Shown here: positions 6,597-31,687 of the stretch, piece after piece | Layout of the letters: the number at the start of each line of letters is the position of its first letter | How positions within the stretch are numbered: the stretch's first letter is position 1 | Source: Candidatus Saccharimonadota bacterium | GTDB lineage: Bacteria; Patescibacteriota; Gracilibacteria; Absconditabacterales; Absconditicoccaceae | DNA: 32,000 nt | Direction: 5' to 3' | Assembly: GCA_000503875.1 (NCBI GenBank) | Contig: CP006913.1 | Coordinates: 150,001-182,000 of the forward strand | The notes under the pieces: model-generated | What the model was told of the DNA's origin: nothing | What the model saw: only the letters and a program-made list of their open reading frames with translations | Database searches by the model: none | Position numbers and translations under genes: made by a program

Positions 6597-6654
6597 ACGC
6601 AGAGAAGATTGAAATAAAATGCAGGGATTATTTATTTAAGAAAGAGAGCCTATA

Positions 6655-8259
6655 TCAACTATAAAGAAATATTCCAATAAAAATAAAGAGAAGAAAACTT
6701 TCAACTGGTCCTGTTTGAACTTTTCTAATGTCTTGCATAACCAACGCTTTTCCATCTTTACAAATGGCTTGTACTGCGTAGTATGCATATTTTTCTTGTT
6801 TTGCAGTTTTATTAAATGGATATTCAAATCTGGTTTCATTTACTTCTGCAACTTTTTGCATTTTTGTAATATCTGAAGTTTCTCGTTCAGATCTATAAAT
6901 AATATATTTTTCTACATTTTGAACTTCACTTCGAGTGAGATAATGACGATCTCAGATAGTAGAGTCAGTAACAGTAATTCCTTGTACTGTACATAAGCTT
7001 TCAGATATATCACCAACGGTTGCCTGTATAATATCAGAAGGAGATCCCAAAGCTTCTCAATTAGCATCCAATGGAATAATCTTGAAATAATACGTTTGGC
7101 CTATGGTAAGATCTTCTAGAACGATTTCTTTTTTGGTAACAATTGCTGATTCATTTAAATTATCTTCTTGAGTTCCAAAAGTAACATTGTATTTTATAGG
7201 ATCTGTTCCTTCAACTTCCCATGTAAGTGTTAATTTATTTTTGTAAACAGAATCTCAAAATATTCTGACCTTACCTATTTTTGTTCATTTTTCTACAATC
7301 AATTTGCTGATATTGGTATATTCTTGTTTTTGTCAGGCAACCAAAAGATCAAGTGATACATCTATTTTTCCTTCTGTATCAATCAACATTTCTTTGCTAA
7401 ATATTCCGGCAGAAACAAGGTCCATAGGGGCGGATCTTCAATTGCTCAATTTGATTGTTGCTGAAGTAACAGTATCACTCGTAGAAATTCTAAAAGTAAC
7501 CTTGGTACCAGCTTTTATCGTATTTCCTGGTAATACTTGAATACTATTAAATGTTCCATCAGTAAACGGACTATAGGTGAAAGGGATGATATCAGATTCA
7601 CCCAAAATAACATTGTTGATGTCCAGGATTTTTGCTTGTAAAGAGTTGCTTCATTTTTGAAGACCTGTTAGATAAGCAGTAAACCCACCAACAGAAGAAG
7701 TTATTCCTTGATAAACCAATTGGCTATTGAGATAAATTTCTAAAGGAGAATTTGGTAAATCAGAACTTCCTCAAATAACTTCAAGAACTTCTGTTTTTTC
7801 TGTACTATCTTTGATAGGGGAATTAATTGTTACTTTTTTTATAGAAATATCTGAATTGGTAGAACCAACAAGAACTGTCTTTTCTCATTTGATAGAATCG
7901 TCTGTAATATCAGAAGCGACTACAGTAAATGTACCAGCTTTCTTGATAATAAGTCATTTAGAAAATGTTTTTATTCCTTGATCTTGAGGAACAAAGGTAT
8001 AAAGACCTTCACTAGGCACAACGTAATCAGTAGTATCTAAGCTTCCTTCAACATCAATAAAAACATCTCCTTCATAATCTTTAACAAGATCTCCGTTTGA
8101 CAAAACAGCTTTGATAGTAACATCAACAGGGACATTAAGATCAAAAGAACTTGGTTCTACTTGAATTACAAAAGCTGCTGGTTGTTGTTGTGCAGCCGCA
8201 AATCCTGCAAAGAAAATAAATGAAGCAACAAATATAATGCGTTTAAATATGTTTCACAT
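6655..8259 (-). CDS. secreted surface protein with Ig-like/fibronectin-III-like beta domains and a C-terminal hydrophobic anchor
   Basis: ATG 8259. N-terminus M-G-NIFKRIIFVASFIFFAGFAAAQQQ is a signal peptide. About 11 in-frame TGA. FN3-like block KLTLTWEVEGTDPIKYNVTFGT..LEDLTIGQTYYFKIIPLD. C-terminus VQTGPVESFLLFIFIGIFLYS then stop at 6655. Only the last 68 aa appear in the ORF track. Confidence 0.7.
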
Positions 8260-8784: not shown

Positions 8785-8917
8785 TGTCAATAATGAACTA
8801 TAATAAAAACAGAAAAAATATAGGAATATAAAACAAAAAATCAAATCAAAAATTTGACAAAGAGCATATTTTTGAGTATAATTAAGCAAAGAAAATTTTA
8901 ATATGTATTATATTATT

Positions 8918-9415
8918 ATGAAAAAAATATTTGCAGCTTTCTTATTTTGCTTGATCTCTCTAGTAAACTTGAGTGTTTTTGCTGAACAACAAAGTCGATG
9001 ATGATATGGAAATGATCCACTTGAAGTGCTTGATAGAGTTGTTGGAGAAGCAAACAAAGATGTTCAATTTCAGGAAACTGCTTTGGATAATATAACTGAC
9101 AAAGAAGGTAGTTTTCAGGCTCAATATAAAATATCTAATACGCTTGATTACTTGAGAATAAATATAGCACCTTATCTGCAATGGGCAGTATATATTTGAC
9201 TTGTTGTCGCAGTAATTTTGATCGTTTATAATGGATTTTTGATGGTTACTCATACAATCAACAAGGAAGGAGATTTTGGTAAAGTAAAAGCAAGAATTTG
9301 ATATATTGCTGTTGGTGTTTTGTTGCTGACATGATTTTATGCAATCATCAAATTGGTTGTAGGTTTGATAAATTCTATATTTTGATCAGGTCCTTCAGGG
9401 GATACTGGGTTTTAG
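8918..9415 (+). CDS. TrbC/VirB2-type (type IV secretion-like) pilin-family protein, single hairpin
   Basis: ATG 8918. Signal peptide MKKIFAAFLFCLISLVNLSVFA, soluble segment, then two TM helices separated by a short charged loop (..WAVYIGLVVAVILIVYNGFLMVTHTINKEGDFGKVKARIGYIAVGVLLLTGFYAIIKLVVGLI..). Six in-frame TGA. TAG at 9413-9415. The track shows only an antisense ORF here. Confidence 0.65.
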
Positions 9416-9432
9416 GTAATAATAGTATATAA

Positions 9433-10389
9433 ATGATTAAGAAAATAAGTAAAGCAGTAATTATGATGATAACATTGCTAGGTATCGGTATGTGAGCAAT
9501 GCATGCAGTAGCACCATCATTTGATGATAATTTTGCTAATTATCTCACTGATAAAACTCCTGATCAATACGGAAGAGTAGAAACGGTATTTAGTTTTTCA
9601 AATTGTATTGATAGAAATCAAAGTATTATGGAGAATGTAAGAAATCTTTTCTATCCAAGTACTTTCAAAAGTGACAATCAATGTTCTTTAACAACAGGAG
9701 GATTGCTTTGGGATATGCTTAGAGTAATTACTTTTGCATTGATATTTGTCTTTATTGTAGTAGCAGGAATGAAATTTATTATGAATGGAACATCCTGAGA
9801 TGAAGCAAAAAAATGAGCAATGAGTCTTGTCTATATTGCATATGGAGCATTTCTTGTTTTTGGCGCAATTTGGATTTTGTGATACGTCCTCAATATAGAA
9901 AACGTGAAATGATCAACAGATCTCGTAAATAGTGTACAGAATAATTTATTTCTCCAAATTTTAAGTTTTTTCAAAGTATTGGCCTTTTTCCTAGCTATTA
10001 TTATGATGGTAGTATCATGATTTAAGATGATGGCTGCTATGGACAAAGAAGATAAAGTCAAAGCAGGAAAGCAATGAGCAATAAATGTAATTGTCGCATT
10101 GGTGTTTATCAAAATTGTAGATTATATTTTTTATATTGCACAAGCATCTGATTTCGCACAAAAAGCATCAACCTTGGTTTTGGATGTAGCCAAAATTCTT
10201 TGATGGATTCTTGGTATTTCATTTGTATTGGGGCTATTTTACGCAGGATATCAAATGTTCCTCTCTGGTGGAGATGAAAAAGCAATCAAAAAGACACAAT
10301 CAATTCTGATCAATATCGTTATCGTTTCTCTTGTTCTTTTCTTATTCTTACTCTTGGTGTACCAAATTTTCAATGAATTTGTAGGATAA
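9433..10389 (+). CDS. membrane protein made of three tandem TrbC/VirB2-like pilin hairpins
   Basis: ATG 9433, signal/TM MIKKISKAVIMMITLLGIGM. Three successive TM-charged loop-TM modules with loops NGTSGDEAKKG, AAMDKEDKVKAGKQG and LSGGDEKAIKKTQ. About 9 in-frame TGA. TAA at 10387-10389. Track ORF 9499..9798 is its first third. Confidence 0.65.
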
Positions 10390-10452
10390 TTTAATTTGGT
10401 GTATAATAAAAAATTCCCCGTAATCCACGAGGAGTTTTTTTAAATTATTTTT

Positions 10453-11004
10453 TTATTTCATTACTTTTTCCATTATTTTTTTCCAATCAATATTTTTTTC
10501 CAAAAGCTTTAATGCTTGGTCGCGATCGAAGGCGAGGGTTTCTTCTCCTACCTGATCAACGGGAACCTTGATGAGAATTCTTGGAATCTGGAATTTCTGA
10601 GCAACATAGTCGATCGCGAAGCTTTCCATGTCGACAACATAGTTTTCTTCGTTTAATATTTTCTCAAAAACTGGCGTTTCACTACAAAAACAACTGCTTA
10701 CAGGAGCGAGGAGCTGAGGAATTGGCACGATGCTTTCTTTTCCTGTACTGGCATTGACAATACGGGCAACTTGTACTAATTTTTCTTTATTTCAAACATA
10801 GCCACACACTCCTACATTCAAAATGAGATCCGGAATTTCTTCTTTATGACTCAAGAGATAATTTGTTAATGAAAACATCGTTTCGTAATTTCCTATTCCT
10901 GTCGTGAAAAAACTAACTGAAAGTCAAACAATATTCAGATTTTTTATATTATTTTTAATTATTTTCGTTTCTCCTCACGTAGCGGCACATACTAGAATTT
11001 TCAT
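10453..11004 (-). CDS. PNP/UDP-1 family nucleosidase (MTA/SAH-nucleosidase or futalosine-hydrolase-like)
   Basis: ATG 11004: MKILVCAAT-G-GETKII...FTTGIGNYE..LILNVGVCGYV..VVDMESFAIDYVAQKFQIPRILIKVPVD, the typical nucleoside phosphorylase superfamily pattern. Three in-frame TGA upstream of track ORF 10453..10728. Confidence 0.6.
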
Positions 11005-11104
11005 AGATAATACGTTGAATAGGTAAATACCCTTATATATCTATTTAAAGTTGCAATTTCAAGTTAACTGCTTATATTCTAAAAAATATTTTACTTCATA
11101 TTTA

Positions 11105-11569
11105 ATGCCCATGGAAAAACAATACACCCAAAAGCGTTATGTAAGTTATGAAGAACTCCAAAAGAAATGTGTTTTACTGGCTGAAAAAATTGAAAAGAGC
11201 GGTTTTTCTCCCAATATGATAGTATCTATCACCAGAGGATGATTGCTTTCTGCATATTTCCTTGCAGATTTGCTAGGAGTAAAGAGTATTGAGACCATTA
11301 ATATTACTACTCATGATGGAACTGTTTCATGAGAAATTAGAGATGCGACGAAAATTCCCAAAGATTTCACCGAATTCAATGCTTTGATTGTAGATGATTT
11401 GATTGATAGCGGGAAAACCATGAAATATATTCTTGATCAATATACGTTCAATCCTTTGGAAACCAAAATAGCAACTATTTATTGTAAATCAAAAGCAACA
11501 TTCAAACCAGATTTTTTTGTAGAAGAAATCCCTGCAGAAGAACGAATTGTTTTTCCATACGAAAGATAA
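11105..11569 (+). CDS. gpt: xanthine/guanine phosphoribosyltransferase (Gpt-like type I PRTase)
   Basis: ATG 11105. MIVSITRG-G-LLSAYFLADLLG and the PRPP motif ALIVDDLIDSGKTM align with E. coli Gpt (IIAVSRGGLVPGALLA, FIVIDDLVDTGGT). Track ORFs 11051..11242 and 11384..11569 share one frame, joined via TGA. Confidence 0.8.
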
Positions 11570-11592
11570 TTTTACTTTAAAATAGCAATATT

Positions 11593-12522
11593 ATGAGCAA
11601 AATCGTATCAATTGATGGTATGACCTGGATGCATTTTCATCATCCATCCAAAGAAGAAATCAAAGAAATAGTAGAAACCTATGATGTCCATGAATTAATT
11701 GAGGAGGATATCGCAGATAAAACAACTCAGGATAAAATAGATGTATATGATGATGCTATTTTTCTTGTGCTTCATTTTCCCAAATATGATAAAAAAAATG
11801 GAAAATATATGTCCAATGAATTTAATATTATTTTGGGGAAAAAATTTATCGTTTCGGTGACCAAATATCACACCAATCATATAGAGAGTATTAGAGAGGA
11901 ATATAATCAAGATCTTCGTGAGGATGAGGATAGAGATGAACATGAATTCAAAATATCTCCGTATTATATTCTCTACAAAATTATAGATGTAATGTATGAT
12001 AAAGTGCTTTTGGCCTTGCATAAATTCAATCTTGATCTCAATGAATTGGAAGAAAATGTTTTTGACGAGGAGGGTTCTAGTAAGGATTTATTGGAAAGAA
12101 TGTTGCTCAAAAAACGCAATATAGTTTTTCTCAAGCATCTTATTTTGCCACAAGCAGATATTTTACAAGAGATTCAAAAAGCAACGATGAATTTCTATGA
12201 AGGAGATTTGGATGTATATTTCGAAGATCTTCAATATAAAACAGATAAAATTCTGGCCAATATTAGTGTTGCAATGGAAAATGCCGAATCGCTTTCCATG
12301 ATGTACAATACACTCGCAAATATTAAAACAAACTCAATAATCTCATTACTTACTATCTTGACAGTAATTATATGAATGATGACAATGATAACTGGACTTT
12401 ATGGGATGAATGTTCAGCTTCCCGGACAAAATGTTACGAGTACATTTTTTATTATCTTGGGAACTATGCTTATTGTTAGTGGATGAATGTATATTTTATT
12501 TAAAAAGAAAAAGTGGATTTAA
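11593..12522 (+). CDS. corA: CorA-family magnesium/cobalt transporter
   Basis: Track ORF 11593..12375 continues through TGA (12373-12375 and one more) into ..ITGLYGMNVQLPG..IILGTMLIVSGGMYILFKKKKWI. It contains the YGMN signature and two C-terminal TM helices. TAA at 12520-12522. Confidence 0.9.
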
Positions 12523-12533
12523 TTTTTTTAAAG

Positions 12534-12565
12534 AAAAAAGCTGCCGAATTCGGCAGCTTTTTTAG
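12534..12565. terminator. bidirectional rho-independent terminator (corA / pyrF convergent pair)
   Basis: AAAAAAGCTGCCG-AATT-CGGCAGCTTTTTT: a perfect stem with flanking A- and T-runs. Confidence 0.85.
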
Positions 12566-12592
12566 TAAGTGACTAAATTGTTTAACCCATAG

Positions 12593-13435
12593 TTACATAC
12601 ATTCTCTAAAAAGGATTTGAGACATTTGTTCTTGTATTTCTTGAGCTTTTATGCCAGCAACTTCGGCAAAGTCTTCACCACTACTCGCATGAATAATTCC
12701 ACGAGAACTATTTACAAGAAGTCCACATTGATCGTTTAGACCATAAATACATACATCATCTAAACTTCCTCCTTGTTCTCCAACACCGGGAACTAACAGA
12801 AAATGGTCTGGAACTATTTCCCTGATTGGTTGGAAATATTCAGCTTTTGTTGCTCCGACCACGAACATCGAATTATCTGGAGTGGCACCCCATTCATTTA
12901 CAGCTTTTTTTAGCATATGTTGGTAAACAGGAAGTGTTGTCTCTTCGATATGAAGTGTCTGTAAATCAGTAGATCCATCATTGCTTGTGAGAGCAAGTAT
13001 AACAGACCACTTATCCTTGTATGTCAAAAATGGTCCGACAGAATCAATCCCCATATATGGGGCAATTGTCATTCCATCAGCTCCAAGCTTTTCAAAGAAT
13101 GCTTTTGCATACATTTTGGAAGTGTTTTTGATATCACCTCTTTTTGCATCAGCAATAATTAAAATTTCGGGATAATGGCTCTTAATATAATTTACAGTAC
13201 ATTCCAATTGTACCCAGCCGGAACTTCCAAACATTTCATAAAAAGCTAAGTTTGGCTTGTATGCAATCGCATATTTTGCCGTAGCATCAATGATTTGTTT
13301 GTTAAATTCCAACAGTGGATATTCAATATTCTCCTCCAAAATGTGTTTAGGTATTTTGGTGATATCAGGGTCAAGTCCTACACAAAGAAATGATTCTTTC
13401 TTCATTATCTGATCAAATAATCGTTCTTTATTCAT
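12593..13435 (-). CDS. pyrF: orotidine-5'-phosphate decarboxylase, type 2
   Basis: Intact 280-aa ORF: [40 protein letters not shown]. No in-frame TGA at all. Confidence 0.9.
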
Positions 13436-22249: not shown

Positions 22250-22795
22250 ATGAACGATTTGTTATTGAAACTCAGACAAAATGCAGAAATGAGGAGAGTC
22301 CCTATAATAAGTAGGCAGACAGAAGAATTTCTTAAAGAGCAGCTTCTGAAATATAAACCTCGTCATTGTATAGAAATAGGAAGTGCTATATGATATAGTA
22401 CAATCTTTGTTGCAGCCCTAATGCAAGCTTGGAACGGCCAAGTAACTTCATTTGAAGTGGCTTATCCAGCTTATTTGGAAGCGTTAATGCATATCAAAGA
22501 GGCGAACCTCCACAATATTACATTATATCCATTTGATATTGTCACTAGCGATGTAAGAAAATTTGTACCAAAAAAATGAGATTTTTTCTTTGTTGATTGA
22601 CAAAAAAGTCAGTATTGAGTATATTTACAGGAGATAGAAAATATAAAAGAAGAAAATAGTCTGATTATTATTGATGATGTCATCAAATTTCATAATAAGT
22701 TAGATTGATTATACGAATATCTTTCCAAAAAGCAAATTAATTATCAAATCCTTCCAATGGAGGAAGGAGATGGTATTATGATAATTAAGCACTAG
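22250..22795 (+). CDS. class I SAM-dependent O-methyltransferase (family 3, YrrM/TrmR-like)
   Basis: ATG 22250. PIISRQTEEFLKEQL..HCIEIGSAI-G-YSTIF (motif I), FFFVD-G-QKSQY, IIIDDV. Five in-frame TGA, so it is absent from the ORF track. TAG at 22793-22795. Confidence 0.7.
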
Positions 22796-23198
22796 GTGCT
22801 GGAATAATTTCTCCACCCAATTTAATTTTTTCTCCTTCAACTTCGAGTTGTTCTAGTTTTGCCAAAACAGAGTCATCAGTATAAATCCATTCTTGAGCTA
22901 CTGCAAAATCAGTTGTGTTTTCCAAAACATCTGGGGATTGTAAAACAGCTATTCTTTTATTATTATAAGAAATAAGATAATTTAAGAGATTGTTTTTTCC
23001 CAAGAAACATTGAATAGTGGTTTCTTCAATATCATATTCTCCAGGGTAATCTACAAGCGCATAATCAAGTTTTTGATAACGCATATCTTCCCCAATTGTT
23101 GTAGCAAGATTGATATATTTATTATTACCTTCACTTGCTCCCAAAAGGAGTTTGTTATCTAAAAGAAATCCATCATTTACTGCCTTAATAGTTGTCAT
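22785..23198 (-). CDS. hypothetical protein, 137 aa
   Basis: Intact ORF with no TGA. Its 3' end overlaps the convergent methyltransferase gene by 11 nt. Contains DYPGEYDIEETTI; I cannot place it in a family. Confidence 0.5.
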   Translation of the reverse strand: MTTIKAVNDGFLLDNKLLLGASEGNNKYINLATTIGEDMRYQKLDYALVDYPGEYDIEETTIQCFLGKNNLLNYLISYNNKRIAVLQSPDVLENTTDFAVAQEWIYTDDSVLAKLEQLEVEGEKIKLGGEIIPAPSA

Positions 23199-23340
23199 AA
23201 TATGTTAATATAAAAGAATAAAGATTTTATCACATAGAAAATTTAAAATTTTCTATTCGACTACGCTGGATATAAAACGATGTCGTAGTCCTTAGCGTAG
23301 TCTAAGGGTAAACTTCTTTGGGAAGTTTCTGCGTCTTATT

Positions 23341-24201
23341 TTATCCGAAAAAGTTTGGATTGATAAGTTGTAAGATAACTCCAGATGCTCCGAGAAGCGC
23401 TAATGCAGAAATAACATTACCTATTATTTTTCTTCATTTTTGAGCTCATTCTTCAGTTCATCAAGATGCAGAAATCATAACTCCACCAATCAAAATTCAT
23501 ACAAAACTAATCAAAAGAATAATAGAAACAAGTAATCTACTTAATCCTCACATAAGCACTGGGAAAGCTGTATTTTCATCAACAACAAGTCCAACACTAG
23601 GTTGAGTAGTAGAAGCTTTCTTATAAACAATACATTGTCAAATAAAAGGGACATTTGTATTGAGTAATATTCCTTCGCAACAAACAGTATCTTTTAGTTC
23701 AATATCGTAATAGGTTTTTTTACAGCATTTGCCTTGAGAATTCAGAAGTCATCAGGGACATGGTTCTTCATCTTTGTTTTTATTATCTTCACCCGTAATT
23801 TCACTTGAACTAGATGCACTTCAGTCTTTTGGATCAGTTGAGGCAGCAAGTGTTCCAGTTTGTGCGACACCTTTTTCTTGACCATCAACAGCACCAGTTG
23901 TAATTGTACATTTACCATTTTCCCATTTGTTAGTGGTGCATTCGCAGATATGACATTGTAGTCATTTTGGACACCCTCATACAGTAGATAAAGTACTTTT
24001 TGTATTATCTTTATTGCAATAGGTTTGCAGTCTTTGGCTACTTTCTGGATATTCACAGGTATAGAAATGTGATCAATGTGTAGCAGGTATTGTTTCTTGG
24101 GTTCTACAATCAACTCAATCAACTCAAAAGGTAATTCATCATCACAACAAAAAACTTATTCACAAAAACAAAACTAAACTATAGAATATATTTTTATACA
24201 T
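23341..24201 (-). CDS. secreted Cys-rich protein with C-terminal TrbC/VirB2-like pilin hairpin (paralogue A)
   Basis: Frame found by reading TGA as Gly (19 in-frame TGA out of about 36 Gly). MYKNIFYSLVLFLGISFLLGGGITFG signal peptide, about 20 Cys, then TAFPVLMGGLSRLLVSIILLISFVGILIGGVMISASGGTEEGAQKGRKIIGNVISALALLGASGVILQLINPNFFG and stop. Standard-code ORFs here are in the wrong frame or strand. Confidence 0.65.
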
Positions 24202-24220
24202 ATGTTTTTTTGAAATTAAA

Positions 24221-24850
24221 TTATCCAAAAAAGTTTGGATTGATAAGACGAAGGATAACTCCAGATGCCCCTAAAAGAGCCAAAGCTACAATAACTTTTC
24301 CGATAAGCGCTTTTCCTTTGGATGCTCAACTATCATCACCACCAGAAGCAGAGATCATTACTCAACCAGCTAATATGCCTACAAATCCCATCAAAATAAT
24401 CACGGTAACCAATATTTTAGTAAGTCCTCACATAAGTATAGGAAAAGCAGTTCTTTCAGTAACTTTACTTTCATTTGCATCGTTAGATCAATCATCTGTA
24501 GATCATTTAGATAGTTCTATACAATTTCCTATAAAAGGTACATTGGTATTGAGTTGGATTCCACAACAGACTCATGTATCTGTACAAGGAACACATCATT
24601 TTTTTTCAACTGCTTTAGTTCAATCTGGACAGATCAATCATTTAAATCAAGTGTCTGCTGTTTCTAAATTTTTGTCCTCTGTAGTATATGTCTTTGGTCA
24701 GTATTTTGTATTATCAACATTTGTTGCAGTATTTTGATAAATATTCGTACTTGGCGGAGTAAGCGTAATTTCAGCAGCTGGATTTTGTGCTAATGTAATA
24801 TTTCCAAGCATCAAAAATCCTATACCCATTATTCAAACAATTTTTTTCAT
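24221..24850 (-). CDS. secreted Cys-rich protein with C-terminal TrbC/VirB2-like pilin hairpin (paralogue B)
   Basis: ATG 24850: MKKIV-G-IMGIGFLMLGNITLAQN signal peptide. 12 in-frame TGA out of about 28 Gly. Shares CCxGIxLNTNVPFIGxCI and the whole C-terminal hairpin (..GGVMISASGG..ALALLGASGVILRLINPNFFG) with paralogue A. Confidence 0.65.
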
Positions 24851-24878
24851 CGAAGAAAAATTCATTATAAGAAGTTAA

Positions 24879-25319
24879 TTATAAAGTATTAATTATTTCA
24901 TTTACCAAGCTTCCATCAATTTCTCCTTTATATGTTGCCATAAGAGCTTTCATAACTTGTCATCTTCCTGTTTTGATATCAGTAATACCTAATTCTGCGA
25001 TAGTTTTTTTGATAGCTTCTTCGGTTTTTTCTCTCGATAAAGTCTGAGGAAGATAGAATTCTAATATTGTTTTTTTCTGCTTTTCTTCTTCTAATTCCTG
25101 TGCTTTGTCTGCTTTTTCCAAAAAACTGATACTTTCATTGAGTGCTTTTACTTCTTTTTTGATAATTTGAATAATATCAGCATCTTCAGGGTCTTTTTGA
25201 AGTTCTATTTTTTTGTTTTTGATCTGAGCAAGTGCATAGTTGAGAATTATTTTCTTTATTTCGTTCTTGTCTCTCATTGCTTGTTTTCGATCTTCAGTAA
25301 TTTGAGAAAGTAAGGTCAT
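24879..25319 (-). CDS. yqeY: GatB/YqeY domain protein
   Basis: Track ORF 24960..25319 (LSQITEDRKQAMRDKNE..YLPQTLSREKTEEAIKKTIAELG) continues through TGA at 24960-24962 into QVMKALMATYKGEIDGSLVNEIINTL, the typical YqeY C-terminus. TAA at 24879-24881. Confidence 0.8.
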
Positions 25320-26614: not shown

Positions 26615-29600
26615 TTATTGTTGAGGTGTTGTTGTTTGATGAATTGTTCTCCATCGATTGTTTAGATATGATTCTAGAAGAAGTTTATTTGATCTTTCAT
26701 CAAATTTCTCACTATTTTTTGTTAAACCATCTTCAGAGAAAACTCTAATTGTCTTTTCTTTTCCATAGAATTCTAGGGCTCATAAGTAGGTTGTGTCAAA
26801 AGCATCATCACCGATATCTCCATTTGTTTCTTTGTCGATAGTAACCGATTTTGCTTTGTTGATAGCATTTGTTACTTTAAATAATTCTTCATAAGTCTCA
26901 AAAGACAGAGATAATCAAGTTATTTTTTTTGAAGTAAGATCAATAGGTGTTGATTGTTCATATGTCTTCAAAGAAACATTTCCTTTTTCATCTTTTTCAA
27001 ATTTAATATTTTTTTCTTCAGAAGGATGCTCTTTATAAAAAGCTTTGAATCCATCTATGATTTTTTTTCTAGTATCAGAATTTGTAAAGTTTTCTATAAC
27101 AGGAAAGAATCATTCTGCTTTATCTTGCATTAACCAAAGATTATTGAGATATTCTATATAAAGTTGTTTGTTGCTTGTTTCAGTTAATTTAGGAGAAACA
27201 GTTCTCAAACCACCTCGCCACAATCCATCAGAAACAGCTGCCACATCTGGTCTTCGATTTCGTATAGATTTATCATCAAATATTATATCATCATTAGCAA
27301 TTTTTTGACCAAAAGGATCTATTATTTTTTGTGATTGTATGTTTTCAAATGTGCTTCTAATTTTGTTGGTTAGATTTGCTGTTTTAAACATATCTTCAAA
27401 GTTACCAAAATCTATATTTAGACCAGCAACTTGATTTTTATTGAAATCAATAGGCGTTGTTTTTCTATAACTGTTTACGTTCAATGTATTTCCAGCAGCA
27501 ACTAATTCAACTCAAATAGTTTTGATGCTAGGATATTTTTGGTAAAATTCTTTATAATCTTTTTTGATTTTTTCTTTTGCTGCTTCAGAAAGATCGAGTT
27601 TGTTTATTTCATCTATATCTTTTTGTAATTTTTCTTGATCTATAATATTTGCATCAATTTCTTCTTCAACTTCTTCTGTTGTGTCTAATGCAGCACTTCA
27701 AGTAGCGACAGTAGGAATTACAAATGATTCGTTACTATTTGTTCATCCTTTTCGATGTTTCTGATTATTTAAATAATTAACATAGGCATCTTTGCTTGCA
27801 TCACCTGCAAGTTGTTGAGATATTTTTTCTAATCCATCATTAGAAATCATAGTCACATCTTGATTCCATACTTTATATCGTTCAGTATTATCAAAAGTTA
27901 TTCTGCTACCTACTCCAGCTATTCACTTTTCAATATAGAAAGGTTTATCTGTTTTTATAGGTGTAAGATTTCTAGTTAAGTTCTTTATTCTGTTTGTTAA
28001 ATTAGCTACACGAAGAAGTTCCTTAGTCATAGGAAATGTCATGGCAGATCCATTTTGATTTACAAGTCCAGGAATTGATTTATTCCCAAGATCCAATGGA
28101 GTAGATTCATTGTGTGTAGTCAAAACAAGTTTTCCATTTTGTTTTTCTAGATTAATATCTGCTTTTGAATCCATATAGAATTGATAAACAGCTTCATGAA
28201 GTTGCTTTTTTTCATCTTCAGTGACATCTGTAAGCGCATCAATTTGGGTATCTAGTTTTGTTTTTATTTCAGGAGCAATATCTACTGCTTTTTCAAATAC
28301 ACCTAGTGATTCTAATTCGGCTAATGTAGGAGAACCTGTTTTTACAAAAGATACAATTCTATCGTCCACTTCTTTGTTGGTTTGATCATATCAATTGTCT
28401 ATCATATGTTTGTTAATAAGTAGTGCTCTTTGAATAACATCATTAGCTAGTTTATCAAATTTTTCTTTTTCATTTTTTGGATCACTTAATGTTGCTCGAT
28501 CTAGACCGACACCTTTCAAAGCAAAATCTACAATGCCTTTTTCATCTTCTTTTCCTATGTTTTCCAAAAATTCTTTTCTCATTTTTGCTTGATTGATTTC
28601 ATCAGCTGTTTTTCCTGTTGGATTTTGAATAATATTCTTATAATTAATCATTTGTGCTTCTCGAATATCTGGTTTAATTCTCATTTTTCAATCGCTTCAT
28701 AATTGAAGCATATCTTTCATTTTTCCGTATGTTTCTTGTCCAAAAAGAAGTGATGCTCAACTTACAGATTGTGCAAGTTGTTCTATTCAAGGTGATTGAG
28801 CACCATTTTCTTTATTATTATCTCCTTTAATCCATCCAAGTATTTTATTAAAAGTAGTTGCTCATTCTCATCCTTTAAACAAATCTTGAGGTCTTCCAGC
28901 TGTAAAAAGAAGAAGTCATGCAGCTCCTCATAACCATCACCAATTGCTAGCATCTTTATAGCCATCTTTTTTAAACATTATATTCCATGTACTTTTAATG
29001 GCTTTCCATCAAAGAAATATTCCTCCAGCAAGAAGTGCAACATTCCCAAAAGATTTATAAAAATTTTGACCTCTCTCCGTGGTATTTTGAATTCATTTTG
29101 ATGCATTATCAAGATAAGAAAATAGTCATTTTTCTGTATTTTGATCAATATTTTCATTTACTGAATCGTTATTAGTACCTGTTACTGTTTTTTCTTTATT
29201 ATCTGCATCTCCTGCGATATTAACATTTCCTCATTGATCAACACCTGCAGGATTTGTGATAACAATATTTTTTGCTAAATAAGGATGTTCGTTTTGTAAG
29301 TTCTTAAGAAGAGTAGTAGTGTATTCGTATGCTTCTTTGTTTTTTGGTGTATAAGGATATTTAGTAGGATCTTTTTTGTTATTTACAATATCTTCAAGAT
29401 ATTTTTGAAAATCTGCCAAATCTTCTGCGCGCATTTGTTCTAAAGTCGCGTTTCCAGTTATTGCATCAACCTTGGCTTGTCTTTTATTGTAGCTTTTTAT
29501 TGCGTTTAAATAATCTTTAGCATCTTTTTGACTAAATTTAGTTGCATCTATGTTGTATGCTGGAGTAATATCAGCTGTTCAGCTTCTTAAAGCTTCATCT

Positions 29601-30304
29601 TGTGATTCAAAGAGAGGAACGTTATCACTAAGTTTATCTAATTGTTGAGAGATATTCTTTAATTTATTTTCGATAAGAGGATCAGAAATATCTAATTCTC
29701 TCATTTTCTTTTCAACATTTCTTAGATCTTTAAGGCGTCTTTCTGATTCATCTTTATGTATTTCTCGATATCTTCTTTCTTGTTTAGATCTGGCATATTT
29801 TGCAGTAAGTCGAAATTGTTCTCTTCTTCCACTATCTTTTTGATCATCAAAAAACTTTTTGAGTTCGTTAATTCTTCGATTGATAACAGTTGGGTTTGTT
29901 GTTCTTTCATGATGAGCTAAGATCTCATTACGCAAAGCCTTTATTTCGTTTGAAGTACCACGAGTAATAATAAGTTGATCTTTTTCTAATCCTGATAAAC
30001 GAACAGCAATATTCTCATCTACCTGTTTTTGTTGTTCAAGAAAACTTAATATAAATTTCTCTACATCATAACCATTTGCTAGCGCAAATTTTGTTTCTTG
30101 TTTGTTGTTGCCCAAAAGAGTAAAGATGTAGCTATCTCAATTTTTTTGTATTTTAATATCTTTGAGATCTTTTACATTATTTTCATTTAGGGTTAGCAAA
30201 AACTGGGCCTCATTGTTTATAAAACTCAATGGGGCAGTGTCTTTTACCTCTGAGATCTGGATTGTCTTACTATCCATTGTGTAATCGATAAATAAAAGTT
30301 TCAT
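26615..30304 (-). CDS. giant orphan membrane protein (about 1229 aa): N-terminal coiled-coil region, central TM hairpin, repeated C-terminal modules
   Basis: Track ORFs 30137..30373, 29579..30115, 29231..29434, 28391..28684, 27923..28369 and 27110..27484 all share one frame. I translated every gap and found about 23 in-frame TGA and no TAA/TAG until TAA at 26615-26617. Start taken at ATG 30304 (alternative 30277), downstream of the preceding terminator. Confidence 0.7.
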
Positions 30305-31206: not shown

Positions 31207-31226
31207 AGTTGTGTAAACATACAATT

Positions 31227-31440
31227 AGACATGGCACCGCAAACGAAGTGCGTCCAGCTCCGCAGGATAGCTCAGTGATTAAGAGAGCATCTGTTGAGTT
31301 ACGGGAGATAAATAACCTCCCAAACTTATTATTATAGACATGGCACCGCAAACGAAGTGCGTCCAGCTCCGCAGGATAGCTCAGTGATTAAGAGAGCATC
31401 TGTTGAGTTACGGGAGATAACCTCCCAAACTTATTATTAT
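31227..31440 (+). repeat. two tandem copies (109 and 105 nt) of a tRNA-like element sharing leader and 5' acceptor strand with the downstream tRNA-Met
   Basis: 31227-31335 and 31336-31440 are identical apart from a 4-nt indel in the loop of a GGGAG..CTCCC hairpin. Each starts AGACATGGCACCG, as does the tRNA-Met gene at 31441, and contains the D-arm-like TAGCTCAGTGATTAAGAGAGC. Neither has a T-arm or a 3' acceptor strand. Confidence 0.85.
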
Positions 31441-31446
31441 AGACAT

Positions 31447-31520: not shown

Positions 31521-31544
31521 AATTACCTAGAATGCCTGTCGCTG

Positions 31545-31622
31545 ACCGAGCCCTTAGTGGTAAACGGCGGCAAAGTCCTATGCGAAATGAAATGAAGTCA
31601 TAGGATTCGAATCTGCTCGGTG
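31545..31622 (+). other. orphan structured segment ending in a second copy of the tRNA-Met 3' end
   Basis: TTCGAATCTGCTCGGTG (31606-31622) repeats 31501-31517 exactly. ACCGAGC (31545-31551) pairs perfectly with GCTCGGT (31615-31621). Internal 8-bp stem GTCCTATG/CATAGGAT (31575-31582 with 31599-31606). No cloverleaf can be drawn. Confidence 0.4.
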
Positions 31623-31687
31623 ATGAAATTGAATGTGGTCATCTCATCATTCAAACATAAGTTTTATTTATTTTAATTTGTGAAATT

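Follow-up and report, generated by a model that had tools for sequence, protein, structure and literature searches.

Candidate Phyla Radiation bacteria (CPR, or Patescibacteria) depend on physical contact with host cells. The closest known system to the genes described here is found among them, in the form of chromosomal type IV secretion systems (T4SSs) with arrays of 2–11 genes that code for VirB2-like pilins, present in 1,948 assemblies (PMC12102498, PMC10633639, PMC12857230). In Southlakia (S. epibionticum ML1) such a T4SS, with its pilin array, is essential for epibiotic growth, and no T4SS had earlier been shown to be indispensable in this respect (PMC10633639, PMC12857230). We have analyzed a stretch of 32,000 nucleotides of a genome of the SR1/Absconditabacterales (contig CP006913.1 of assembly GCA_000503875.1, positions 150,001 to 182,000; the window from here on) and found in it two adjacent genes, gA and gB, whose products carry an N-terminal head and a C-terminal, pilin-like transmembrane (TM) hairpin. 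We regard them as candidate host-contact surface proteins of bacteria that live on other bacteria.

The Southlakia-type arrays and the gA/gB family have several features in common. Both belong to monoderm CPR bacteria, and in both the protein combines a signal peptide with a hairpin whose two helices are joined by a short basic loop. Both appear as tandem paralogues of divergent sequence, both match the T4SS_pilin family PF18895 (at the family level in the case of gA/gB), and for both the proposed role is host contact rather than conjugation (PMC12102498, PMC10633639). However, most of the Patescibacterial pilins surveyed are near virB4, whereas gA and gB are located in a housekeeping locus, ca. 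45 kb away from the only T4SS-type ATPase gene found. The pilins described so far are small, and in Southlakia ML1 they are reportedly encoded inside the T4SS cluster. The gA/gB family has a Cys-rich head of 70–150 or more residues, a unique CCGIxLNTNVPFIGxCI module and a LINPNFFG terminus. Besides, it is the hairpin that is conserved rather than the whole protein, and gA and gB fall under the thresholds of the hidden Markov models (HMMs). No description of this head-fusion architecture was found in the literature. Part of the family may have been counted already as 'VirB2-like' in the 2025 survey, since some members would pass its HMM thresholds. With somewhat less than even confidence, we propose that gA and gB are fiber-forming, head-bearing VirB2-like pilins used for contact with host or prey. 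Much more secure than this mechanism are the existence of the genes, their code and architecture, the family with its conservation pattern and synteny, and the homology to PF18895 at the family level.

Two tandem genes that read UGA as glycine

With the standard code, the only sizeable open reading frames (ORFs) of the interval 23300-24900 were 24210..24737 on the plus strand, the longest of the interval, and 23742..24122 on the minus strand. As a model reading the sequence alone had pointed out (the earlier note), both are on the wrong strand or frame: the first is antisense to gB and the second differs in frame from gA. Under code 25, with TAA and TAG as sole stops and TGA read as Gly, two tandem ORFs emerge on the minus strand, gB and then, downstream, gA (Table 1). 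The start of gA is 19 nt past the stop of gB and the two genes are probably co-transcribed; a scan for promoters and terminators gave counts no higher than those of shuffled controls. The numbers of recoded codons were the same as given in the earlier note. TGA accounts for 19 of the 36 Gly codons of gA, which has 14 Cys, and for 12 out of 28 in gB (6 Cys), counted over the 209 aa that start at 24850. Regarding gene sizes, the 286 aa assigned to gA stand, but the start of gB is better placed at 24865 (MNFSSMKK...), 15 nt upstream of 24850, giving 214 aa. This start fits the deposited models P0024 and P0480 and is supported by the homologue P0028, which begins with MNISSMKK.

The frames are coding, as indicated by their 129 homologues (at E <= 0.01) and by the identity to orthologous DNA, which was highest at codon position 2 (0.64-0.80), followed by position 1 (0.53-0.65) and position 3 (0.40-0.55). 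The HMM of the family retrieved gB with E = 2e-52 and gA with E = 5e-49. Actually, the whole window is recoded, with non-overlapping code-25 ORFs that cover 91% of the 32 kb and code-11 ORFs that are short fragments. Where one paralogue has TGA, GGN is found in its partner (PFIGNCI versus PFI-TGA-QCI, and AG-TGA-VMISASGG versus IGGVMISAS-TGA-TGA), and at the invariant Gly columns of the family alignment the homologues translated with code 4 have W exactly where the NCBI code-25 proteins have G. Therefore, TGA is read as Gly and not as Trp. The only tRNAs detected in the window were tRNA-Leu(GAG), tRNA-Ser(GCU) and tRNA-Met(CAU), none of them a tRNA-Gly with anticodon UCA. The two genes, gA and gB, are real and belong to an SR1/Absconditabacteria genome in which UGA means glycine. 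The opposite possibility, that the minus-strand frames are artefacts of sense TGA codons and that 24210..24737 (+) is the true gene, draws on the length of this standard-code ORF, and we give it a negligible probability. The plus-strand ORF is refuted as a real gene by the window-wide recoding, by the hundreds of homologues of the minus-strand frames with invariant motifs and by the conservation pattern of the codon positions. In addition, synteny is kept in 60+ genomes and the public gene models, with codes 4 and 25, both call the minus-strand genes.

Copies of the two genes were already in the databases, all of them unnamed. The code-4 copies (P0001 and P0024) are on an ENA contig of 264,250 bp and the code-25 copies (P0479 and P0480) on an NCBI contig of 1,177,760 bp. 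The claim that the genes are invisible without code 25 holds in that the standard code fails on both of them, but it went too far, given that public models with codes 4 and 25 exist. The code-4 versions, with W for each TGA, and the code-25 versions share one 90% cluster, and the code-4 copies weaken HMM and structure searches. Wrong-code gene calls corrupt database proteins in this way; the code-4 version of gA has W in place of G at 19 of its 286 residues.

With E <= 1e-3 as threshold, a full scan of 1.84 billion representatives yielded 918 representative clusters, of which 274 reached E <= 1e-30. When one genome per species was scanned, we found 84 loci in 80 genomes, namely SR1/Absconditabacterales, including the human oral taxon HOT-345, and metagenome-assembled genomes labelled Gracilibacteria or 'Peribacteria'. 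The related loci are recoded as well (median long-ORF coverage of 0.24 with code 11 versus 0.85 with code 25). Copy number across relatives, a comparison that the earlier note had called for, ranged from 1 to 3 per locus: a single copy in 61 loci, two in 10 and three in 1 (72 loci, with a crude gene caller). In GCA_028693445.1, the closest complete relative, the place of the two copies of the window is occupied by three in tandem (210, 238 and 317 aa), and the order of short copy followed by long copy is retained. A family member was also found in a contig of 576,648 bp labelled Saprospiraceae bacterium MAG-141, i.e., Bacteroidota (JAHDCU010000003.1, locus L068). The GC content of this stretch (0.34) and its long-ORF coverage (0.61 with code 11 and 0.84 with code 25) suggest that the contig is mis-binned or mislabelled and SR1-like.

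Head, beta-module and hairpin

The plan of the family consists of a signal peptide, a hypervariable Cys-rich head, a beta-module (CCGIxLNTNVPFIGxCI), a flexible linker and a TM hairpin that ends in LINPNFFG. Three hydrophobic segments per protein were detected by hydropathy, the N-terminal signal peptide and two C-terminal TM helices (residues 4-28, 211-249 and 258-282 in gA; 3-22, 134-171 and 180-205 in gB, in the 209-aa numbering). The same arrangement had been read from the sequence before, and it was found as well in the structural models of orthologues. The loops between TM1 and TM2 contain KGRK / KGK, and from the positive-inside rule we infer that the hairpin is oriented N-out/C-out, with the basic loop in the cytoplasm.

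In the alignment of 120 homologues the conserved C-terminal unit has ca. 111 residues and comprises vCCGIxLNTNVPFIGnCI, a variable linker, TAFPvLMggLtKILVT, TM1, GGVMIsasG, a GKK loop and TM2 (ALALLGASGVILRLINPNFFG). The beta-module takes up some 18 of these residues (CC...C). Three places have invariant residues: in the beta-module these are L, T, P and C, where TM1 has its outer end A-F-P-x-L, and at the C-terminus N-P-x-F-F. The hairpin also carries a small-residue GASG motif. N-terminal to this unit the proteins are Cys-rich and vary both in sequence and in length, so that members range from 104 to 694 aa. The shared block and the near-identical C-terminus described in the earlier note are indeed present in gA and gB, which are 69% identical over module and hairpin and 74% over the hairpin alone, versus 35% over the heads. 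Likewise, gA and its 'long' orthologues are 75-87% identical over module and hairpin versus 34-50% over the head. In evolution the head thus changes much faster than the hairpin with its outer ends. This difference, the decisive clue in our view, speaks for dense protein-protein contacts of the hairpin, either through self-assembly or through engagement with a machine, and not for a passive anchor.

As stand-ins for gA and gB we used the AlphaFold2 (AF2) models of the code-25 orthologues P0009 (gA-type) and P0032 (gB-type), which have a mean predicted local distance difference test score (pLDDT) of 77.5 and 81.0, respectively. In each model the signal peptide is helical and the head folded; then come a small beta-module, a linker of low confidence and two long helices, antiparallel to each other, with pLDDT ~85-96 (residues 243-276/281-311 in P0009 and 133-169/174-204 in P0032). 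The head of P0009 reaches a pLDDT of 94. The signal peptide of gB is backed by the orthologue model, in which an N-terminal helix is followed by a low-confidence stretch. Neither the heads nor the beta-module of gA, gB and family members belonged to a described family in Pfam or NCBIfam, and Foldseek searches of both models against PDB, and of one model against viral structures, gave nothing at E <= 0.001. The head of P0032 has a faint EGF/TNFR-like resemblance only. This agrees with the earlier note, which could assign the head domain to no described family.

Relation to VirB2-type pilins and type IV secretion

The same note had assigned to the hairpin a TrbC/VirB2-like topology, and this was borne out for the family but not for the two proteins by themselves. 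The family consensus matches PF18895 with E = 1.2e-6 and 28.9 bits, above the curated cut-off of 26.6, over profile positions 7-70 of 71, and the next-best Pfam family is four orders of magnitude weaker. Matches to PF18895 at E <= 0.1 were found in 34 of the 120 members (best 1.1e-5), and matches to PF04956 (TrbC/VirB2) at the same threshold in 22 (best 5e-4); two members match CagC. The syntenic code-25 orthologue of gB, P0032, matches PF18895 with E = 1.5e-4 in the region equivalent to the hairpin of gB. The genome has bona fide PF18895 proteins, as illustrated by g7, a product of the same window with three tandem hairpins of this family, whose orthologues are 54-100% identical across the SR1/Absconditabacterales. 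When the family HMM was run on the window proteins, g7 was the only one above the inclusion threshold besides gA and gB, and hhalign of the family hairpin against repeats 2 and 3 of g7 gave a probability of 62-66%, in the same TM1-loop-TM2 register. gA and gB also have the signal peptide and the two TM helices with a short basic loop that are expected of the pilin superfamily. These data support the hairpin as a divergent member of the VirB2/T4SS_pilin superfamily, at the level of the family and not from the sequences of gA and gB alone.

Other results, on the proteins themselves and on the genes around them (see below), weigh against gA and gB being pilins. Searched alone, neither of them matched PF18895 or PF04956 at E < 1, and residues 219-280 of gA gave a weak match to NF045849, a pilin-like conjugal transfer protein (E = 0.16). 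In the Foldseek searches of both AF2 models every match had E > 1, and a two-helix hairpin is a low-information fold. The profile of the hairpin alignment, searched against PDB sequences, matched only PsbZ, flagellin and transporters, all of them chance two-TM similarities, but no pilin. The conjugation pilus of Aeropyrum pernix (8dfu), which is without head domain, was the only pilin-class structure retrieved and the best one of this class for both models. It ranked first for P0009, and for P0032 its Foldseek probability of 0.77 exceeded that of every other match listed (TM-score of 0.67 and root-mean-square deviation of 2.3 A over 69 columns). However, its E values (1.6-2.1) are not significant, with TM-scores of 0.58-0.67 normalised to the pilin.

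These negatives are what one would find if the pilin likeness were convergent and the hairpin were an unrelated two-TM module (a small channel, holin-like or claudin-like) without any tie to type IV secretion. gA and gB miss the pilin HMMs, the structural matches are not significant and there are weak matches to unrelated two-TM families such as Claudin_2 (22 members), PsbZ and DUF4405. On the other hand, PF18895 is the commonest and strongest match, the sole one past its curated cut-off, and in full-length register. The TrbC, CagC and Mycoplasma pilin-like models turn up too, and the family HMM brings in g7, the PF18895 protein of the window, above the inclusion threshold. We consider convergence very unlikely. 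The earlier note had named three findings that would be fatal to its proposal, a hairpin with no pilin likeness in HMMs or structure, reading frames not conserved in relatives, and transcript or proteome evidence for the plus-strand ORF. None of them was obtained in full.

Among described pilins, the diderm VirB2, TrbC and TraA have an N-out/C-out hairpin with a positive cytoplasmic (lumen-facing) loop, as inferred for gA and gB, and the weak TrbC matches mentioned above go in the same direction. In contrast, the gA/gB family is much larger, belongs to a monoderm envelope and has no significant sequence match to a solved pilin. The Mbov_0395 family (NF045849), found in integrative and conjugative elements of Mycoplasma, is a monoderm T4SS-associated small hairpin protein to which the family hairpin matches with E = 0.009-0.16, although at ~16 bits this is far under the cut-off of 40 bits and provides a lead only. 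The type IV pilins (PilA-type) offer a functional analogy, a conserved hydrophobic assembly element with a variable, disulfide-stabilised globular head displayed on a fiber. They are not homologous, with a single N-terminal helix there and a C-terminal hairpin here. gA and gB were rejected as type IV pilins themselves because their N-termini are Sec signal peptides (MYKNIFYSLVLFLGISFLLGGGITFG...; MNFSSMKKIVGIMGIGFLMLGNITLA...) without the class III signal of a short basic leader and G | F/M-x-x-x-E, and because they have their hydrophobic assembly element at the C-terminus.

The VirB2-family pilins known so far are of small size. At 286 and 214 aa, gA and gB exceed the size of the mature proteins (~70-130 residues and no extra domain). 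In another reading gA and gB would be precursors, with head and beta-module as a long pro-region cut near the invariant TAFP. This cut would leave a pilin of ~75 residues, the size of VirB2, and a Cys-rich fragment that would be discarded or act as a secreted factor. VirB2, TrbC and TraA are indeed made as propilins from which long N-terminal leaders are removed, the invariant A-F-P-x-L is found exactly at the boundary between head and hairpin, and the segment that precedes it is flexible (low pLDDT). But the N-terminus already carries an ordinary short signal peptide, and the pro-region would include a folded domain, conserved in part, besides the invariant beta-module, all of which would be costly to discard. 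Furthermore, no candidate protease is linked to the locus among the neighbors in 72 loci. Processing of this kind appears quite improbable.

The gene context is the other source of doubt. The earlier note had looked to VirB4/VirB6/VirD4-like genes for support, and the Pfam scan of the window proteins detected no VirB4, VirB6 or VirD4. In the conserved neighborhood of the 72 related loci the recurrent genes are housekeeping, and a T4SS-type ATPase was found only in L070 and L072. It has ~970 aa, with TrwB_AAD_bind, DUF87/HerA and TraG-D_C domains. In L072 (6529-9441) it is directly upstream of the family member, on the same strand and with a gap of 146 bp, and in L070 it is four genes away. Orthologues of this ATPase are 57-92% identical across the order. 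One copy, P0443 (AHB41028.1, candidate division SR1 bacterium RAAC1_SR1_1), is encoded by a contig of 1,177,760 bp, and the code-25 copies of gA, gB and g7 are on an NCBI contig of this length too. Its cluster-mate P0478 shares the 264,250-bp ENA contig with gA, with the ATPase at 43,290-46,253 (10001-12964 of locus L082) and gA at 90,553-91,413, i.e., ~45 kb apart. At its C-terminus this ATPase, of ~980 aa, is fused to an S1 RNA-binding domain, and its gene has ribosomal and housekeeping genes as neighbors. The S1 fusion is odd for an ATPase similar to T4SS coupling proteins, and the gene is core to the order. No VirB4-specific Pfam match was identified in this genome, in which no genome-wide search for VirB4, VirB3 and VirB6 was carried out. 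The isolated location of the ATPase is consistent with what has been published for the class Gracilibacteria, in which the T4SS components are dispersed and not clustered with virB4 (PMC12102498).

Probable surface display, neighboring features and significance

In the mechanism that we propose, the protein would be exported by Sec and its signal peptide cleaved. The inserted hairpin would have its two ends outside and its basic loop in the cytoplasm, leaving head and beta-module extracellular on a flexible tether. Export and surface display of gA and gB, as predicted from their sequences, are probable; polymerisation, T4SS dependence and host binding are speculative. In these later steps, the dispersed T4SS-like machinery of Patescibacteria would extract the hairpin from its pool in the membrane and pack it into a fiber, as happens with VirB2-type pilins. 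Pilins of this type have both termini on the exterior of the pilus, and therefore an N-terminal head could decorate the fiber. The heads would project outward and bind the surface of host or prey, and the tandem paralogues together with the fast divergence of the heads would provide alternative binding specificities. One consideration of space is added here to the doubts already mentioned: a head of 70-150+ residues in each subunit may be hard to fit in the lattice of a pilus. The most elaborate version is a 'bottle-brush' fiber of VirB2 class, assembled by the dispersed T4SS, in which every subunit would carry a hypervariable disulfide-rich head that sets to which host or prey cell the predator attaches, and the beta-module would form the collar between shaft and head. 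We hold this version to be unlikely.

The main rival to a head-bearing pilin is a surface protein that does not polymerise. The pilin-derived hairpin would be a membrane anchor, maybe docking to a conserved membrane partner, and the Cys-rich head a monomeric or oligomeric adhesin or receptor, with neither fiber nor T4SS involved. This is a serious possibility, although one that we also place clearly under even chances. The locus belongs to the housekeeping core, in 70 of the 72 related loci there is no T4SS gene close by, the gene is single copy in 61 of the 72, and a head followed by a flexible linker resembles a tethered ectodomain. The heads of up to ~600 residues of some members suit a tether better than a lattice. 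Against it, a simple anchor should evolve freely, and the hairpin with its ends AFP and NPNFF is the most conserved part of the protein; moreover, the pilin match of the family spans the entire hairpin.

Returning to the locus, the head-bearing genes proposed here as pilins have very stable flanks (Table 1), with farther neighbors that are housekeeping genes such as those of RNase J, MgsA, GrpE, VanY and others. This stability marks the pilin-like gene as part of the core genome of the order, inherited vertically and placed outside mobile elements and T4SS clusters. Immediately downstream, g21 may be a functional partner of the pilin-like genes, because it follows them in most of the related loci. 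Its product is without signal peptide, has a conserved DYPGEYDI motif and had no relative in Pfam and PDB searches.

Table 1. Coordinates of gA, gB, their parts and other features of the window (positions counted from its first nucleotide)
Feature	Position	Strand	Remarks
gB	24221..24865	-	214 aa; code-25 translation; equals database proteins P0024 (code 4) and P0480 (NCBI)
gB signal peptide (MNFSSMKKIVGIMGIGFLMLGNITLA / QNP)	24788..24865	-	N-terminal hydrophobic segment; A-x-A-like cleavage site inferred from sequence
gB variable head	24575..24787	-	short, polar; 3 Cys right before the module; without Pfam family
gB beta-module VCCGIQLNTNVPFIGNCI	24518..24571	-	(near-)invariant L, N, T, V, P, F, C, I in 120 homologues; beta strands in AF2 models
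gB pilin-like hairpin	24224..24451	-	TAFP, TM1, basic loop (SGGDDSGASKGKA), TM2, LINPNFFG; hydropathy
gA	23341..24201	-	286 aa; equals database proteins P0001 (code 4) and P0479 (NCBI)
gA Cys-rich head	23686..24123	-	H.YTCE ... CHICEC ... CCKKxYYD; kept only among 'long' orthologues
gA beta-module VCCEGILLNTNVPFIGQCI	23629..23685	-	family alignment/HMM
gA pilin-like hairpin	23344..23571	-	TAFP, TM1, loop (SGGTEEGAQKGRK), TM2, LINPNFFG; hydropathy and profile comparison
YqeY/GatB-like gene	24879..25319	-	directly upstream; PF09424 assigned to this gene in L001 and L083; position -1 in 60/72 loci
g21	22785..23198	-	137 aa, cytoplasmic; counterpart of 134-137 aa at position +1 in 62/72 related loci
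g7	9433..10389	+	318 aa; three tandem PF18895 hairpins, E = 7.7e-13 over 3 stretches
g6	8903..9415	+	170 aa, directly upstream of g7; signal peptide and hairpin; TrbC E = 0.036, T4SS_pilin E = 0.24
g4	6628-8259	-	543 aa; secreted, C-terminal TM anchor; no Pfam match
g26	26615-30304	-	1229 aa; no Pfam family
Two tandem repeats of ~110 nt	31207-31445	+	between tRNA-Ser(GCU) and tRNA-Met(CAU)
Further tRNA-like piece	31522-31640		past tRNA-Met; ends like its 3' end (GGATTCGAATCTGCTCGGTG)

The window and its relatives contain other proteins and elements worth describing. The product of g7 is a covalently triplicated pilin unit in one polypeptide, which is unusual in itself. A further hairpin protein, of ~175 aa and with no Pfam match at E <= 0.01, adjoins family members in 9 related loci (e.g., L047, 14122-14649). 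g4 is another candidate surface protein, with a counterpart of ~548 aa in 18 related loci. The protein encoded by g26 has about three internal repeats (..TP[IL]D[LF]..K.[IV].GL...F....[EL][LM]F[KR].[AT]N[LA][TI]N[KR]I..), and its counterpart in a relative (1201 aa) is found at the same position together with the 197-aa g27. Each of the ~110-nt repeats next to the tRNA genes starts like the 5' end of tRNA-Met (GGCACCG...) and has a D-arm-like GGATAGCTCAGTGATTAAGAG. No call was made by Rfam or ARAGORN, the latter also run with introns allowed, in these repeats or in the piece located past tRNA-Met.

The family is a lineage-wide variant of the core genome in SR1/Absconditabacterales, an order with predatory species and human oral taxa, and its signature is missed by the current Pfam and NCBIfam models. 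The combination of a conserved pilin-type hairpin with a fast-diversifying extracellular head is what one would expect to see in a host-recognition molecule. If these proteins are fiber subunits, the VirB2 family extends to pilins that display a domain. If they are only anchored adhesins, they are still candidate host-range determinants and a marker family, with CCGIxLNTNVPFIGxCI ... LINPNFFG as signature. Were the 'bottle-brush' fiber true, the VirB2 family would have its first pilin that displays a domain, and the host specificity of code-25 CPR bacteria, human oral SR1 lineages among them, could be approached directly at the molecular level.

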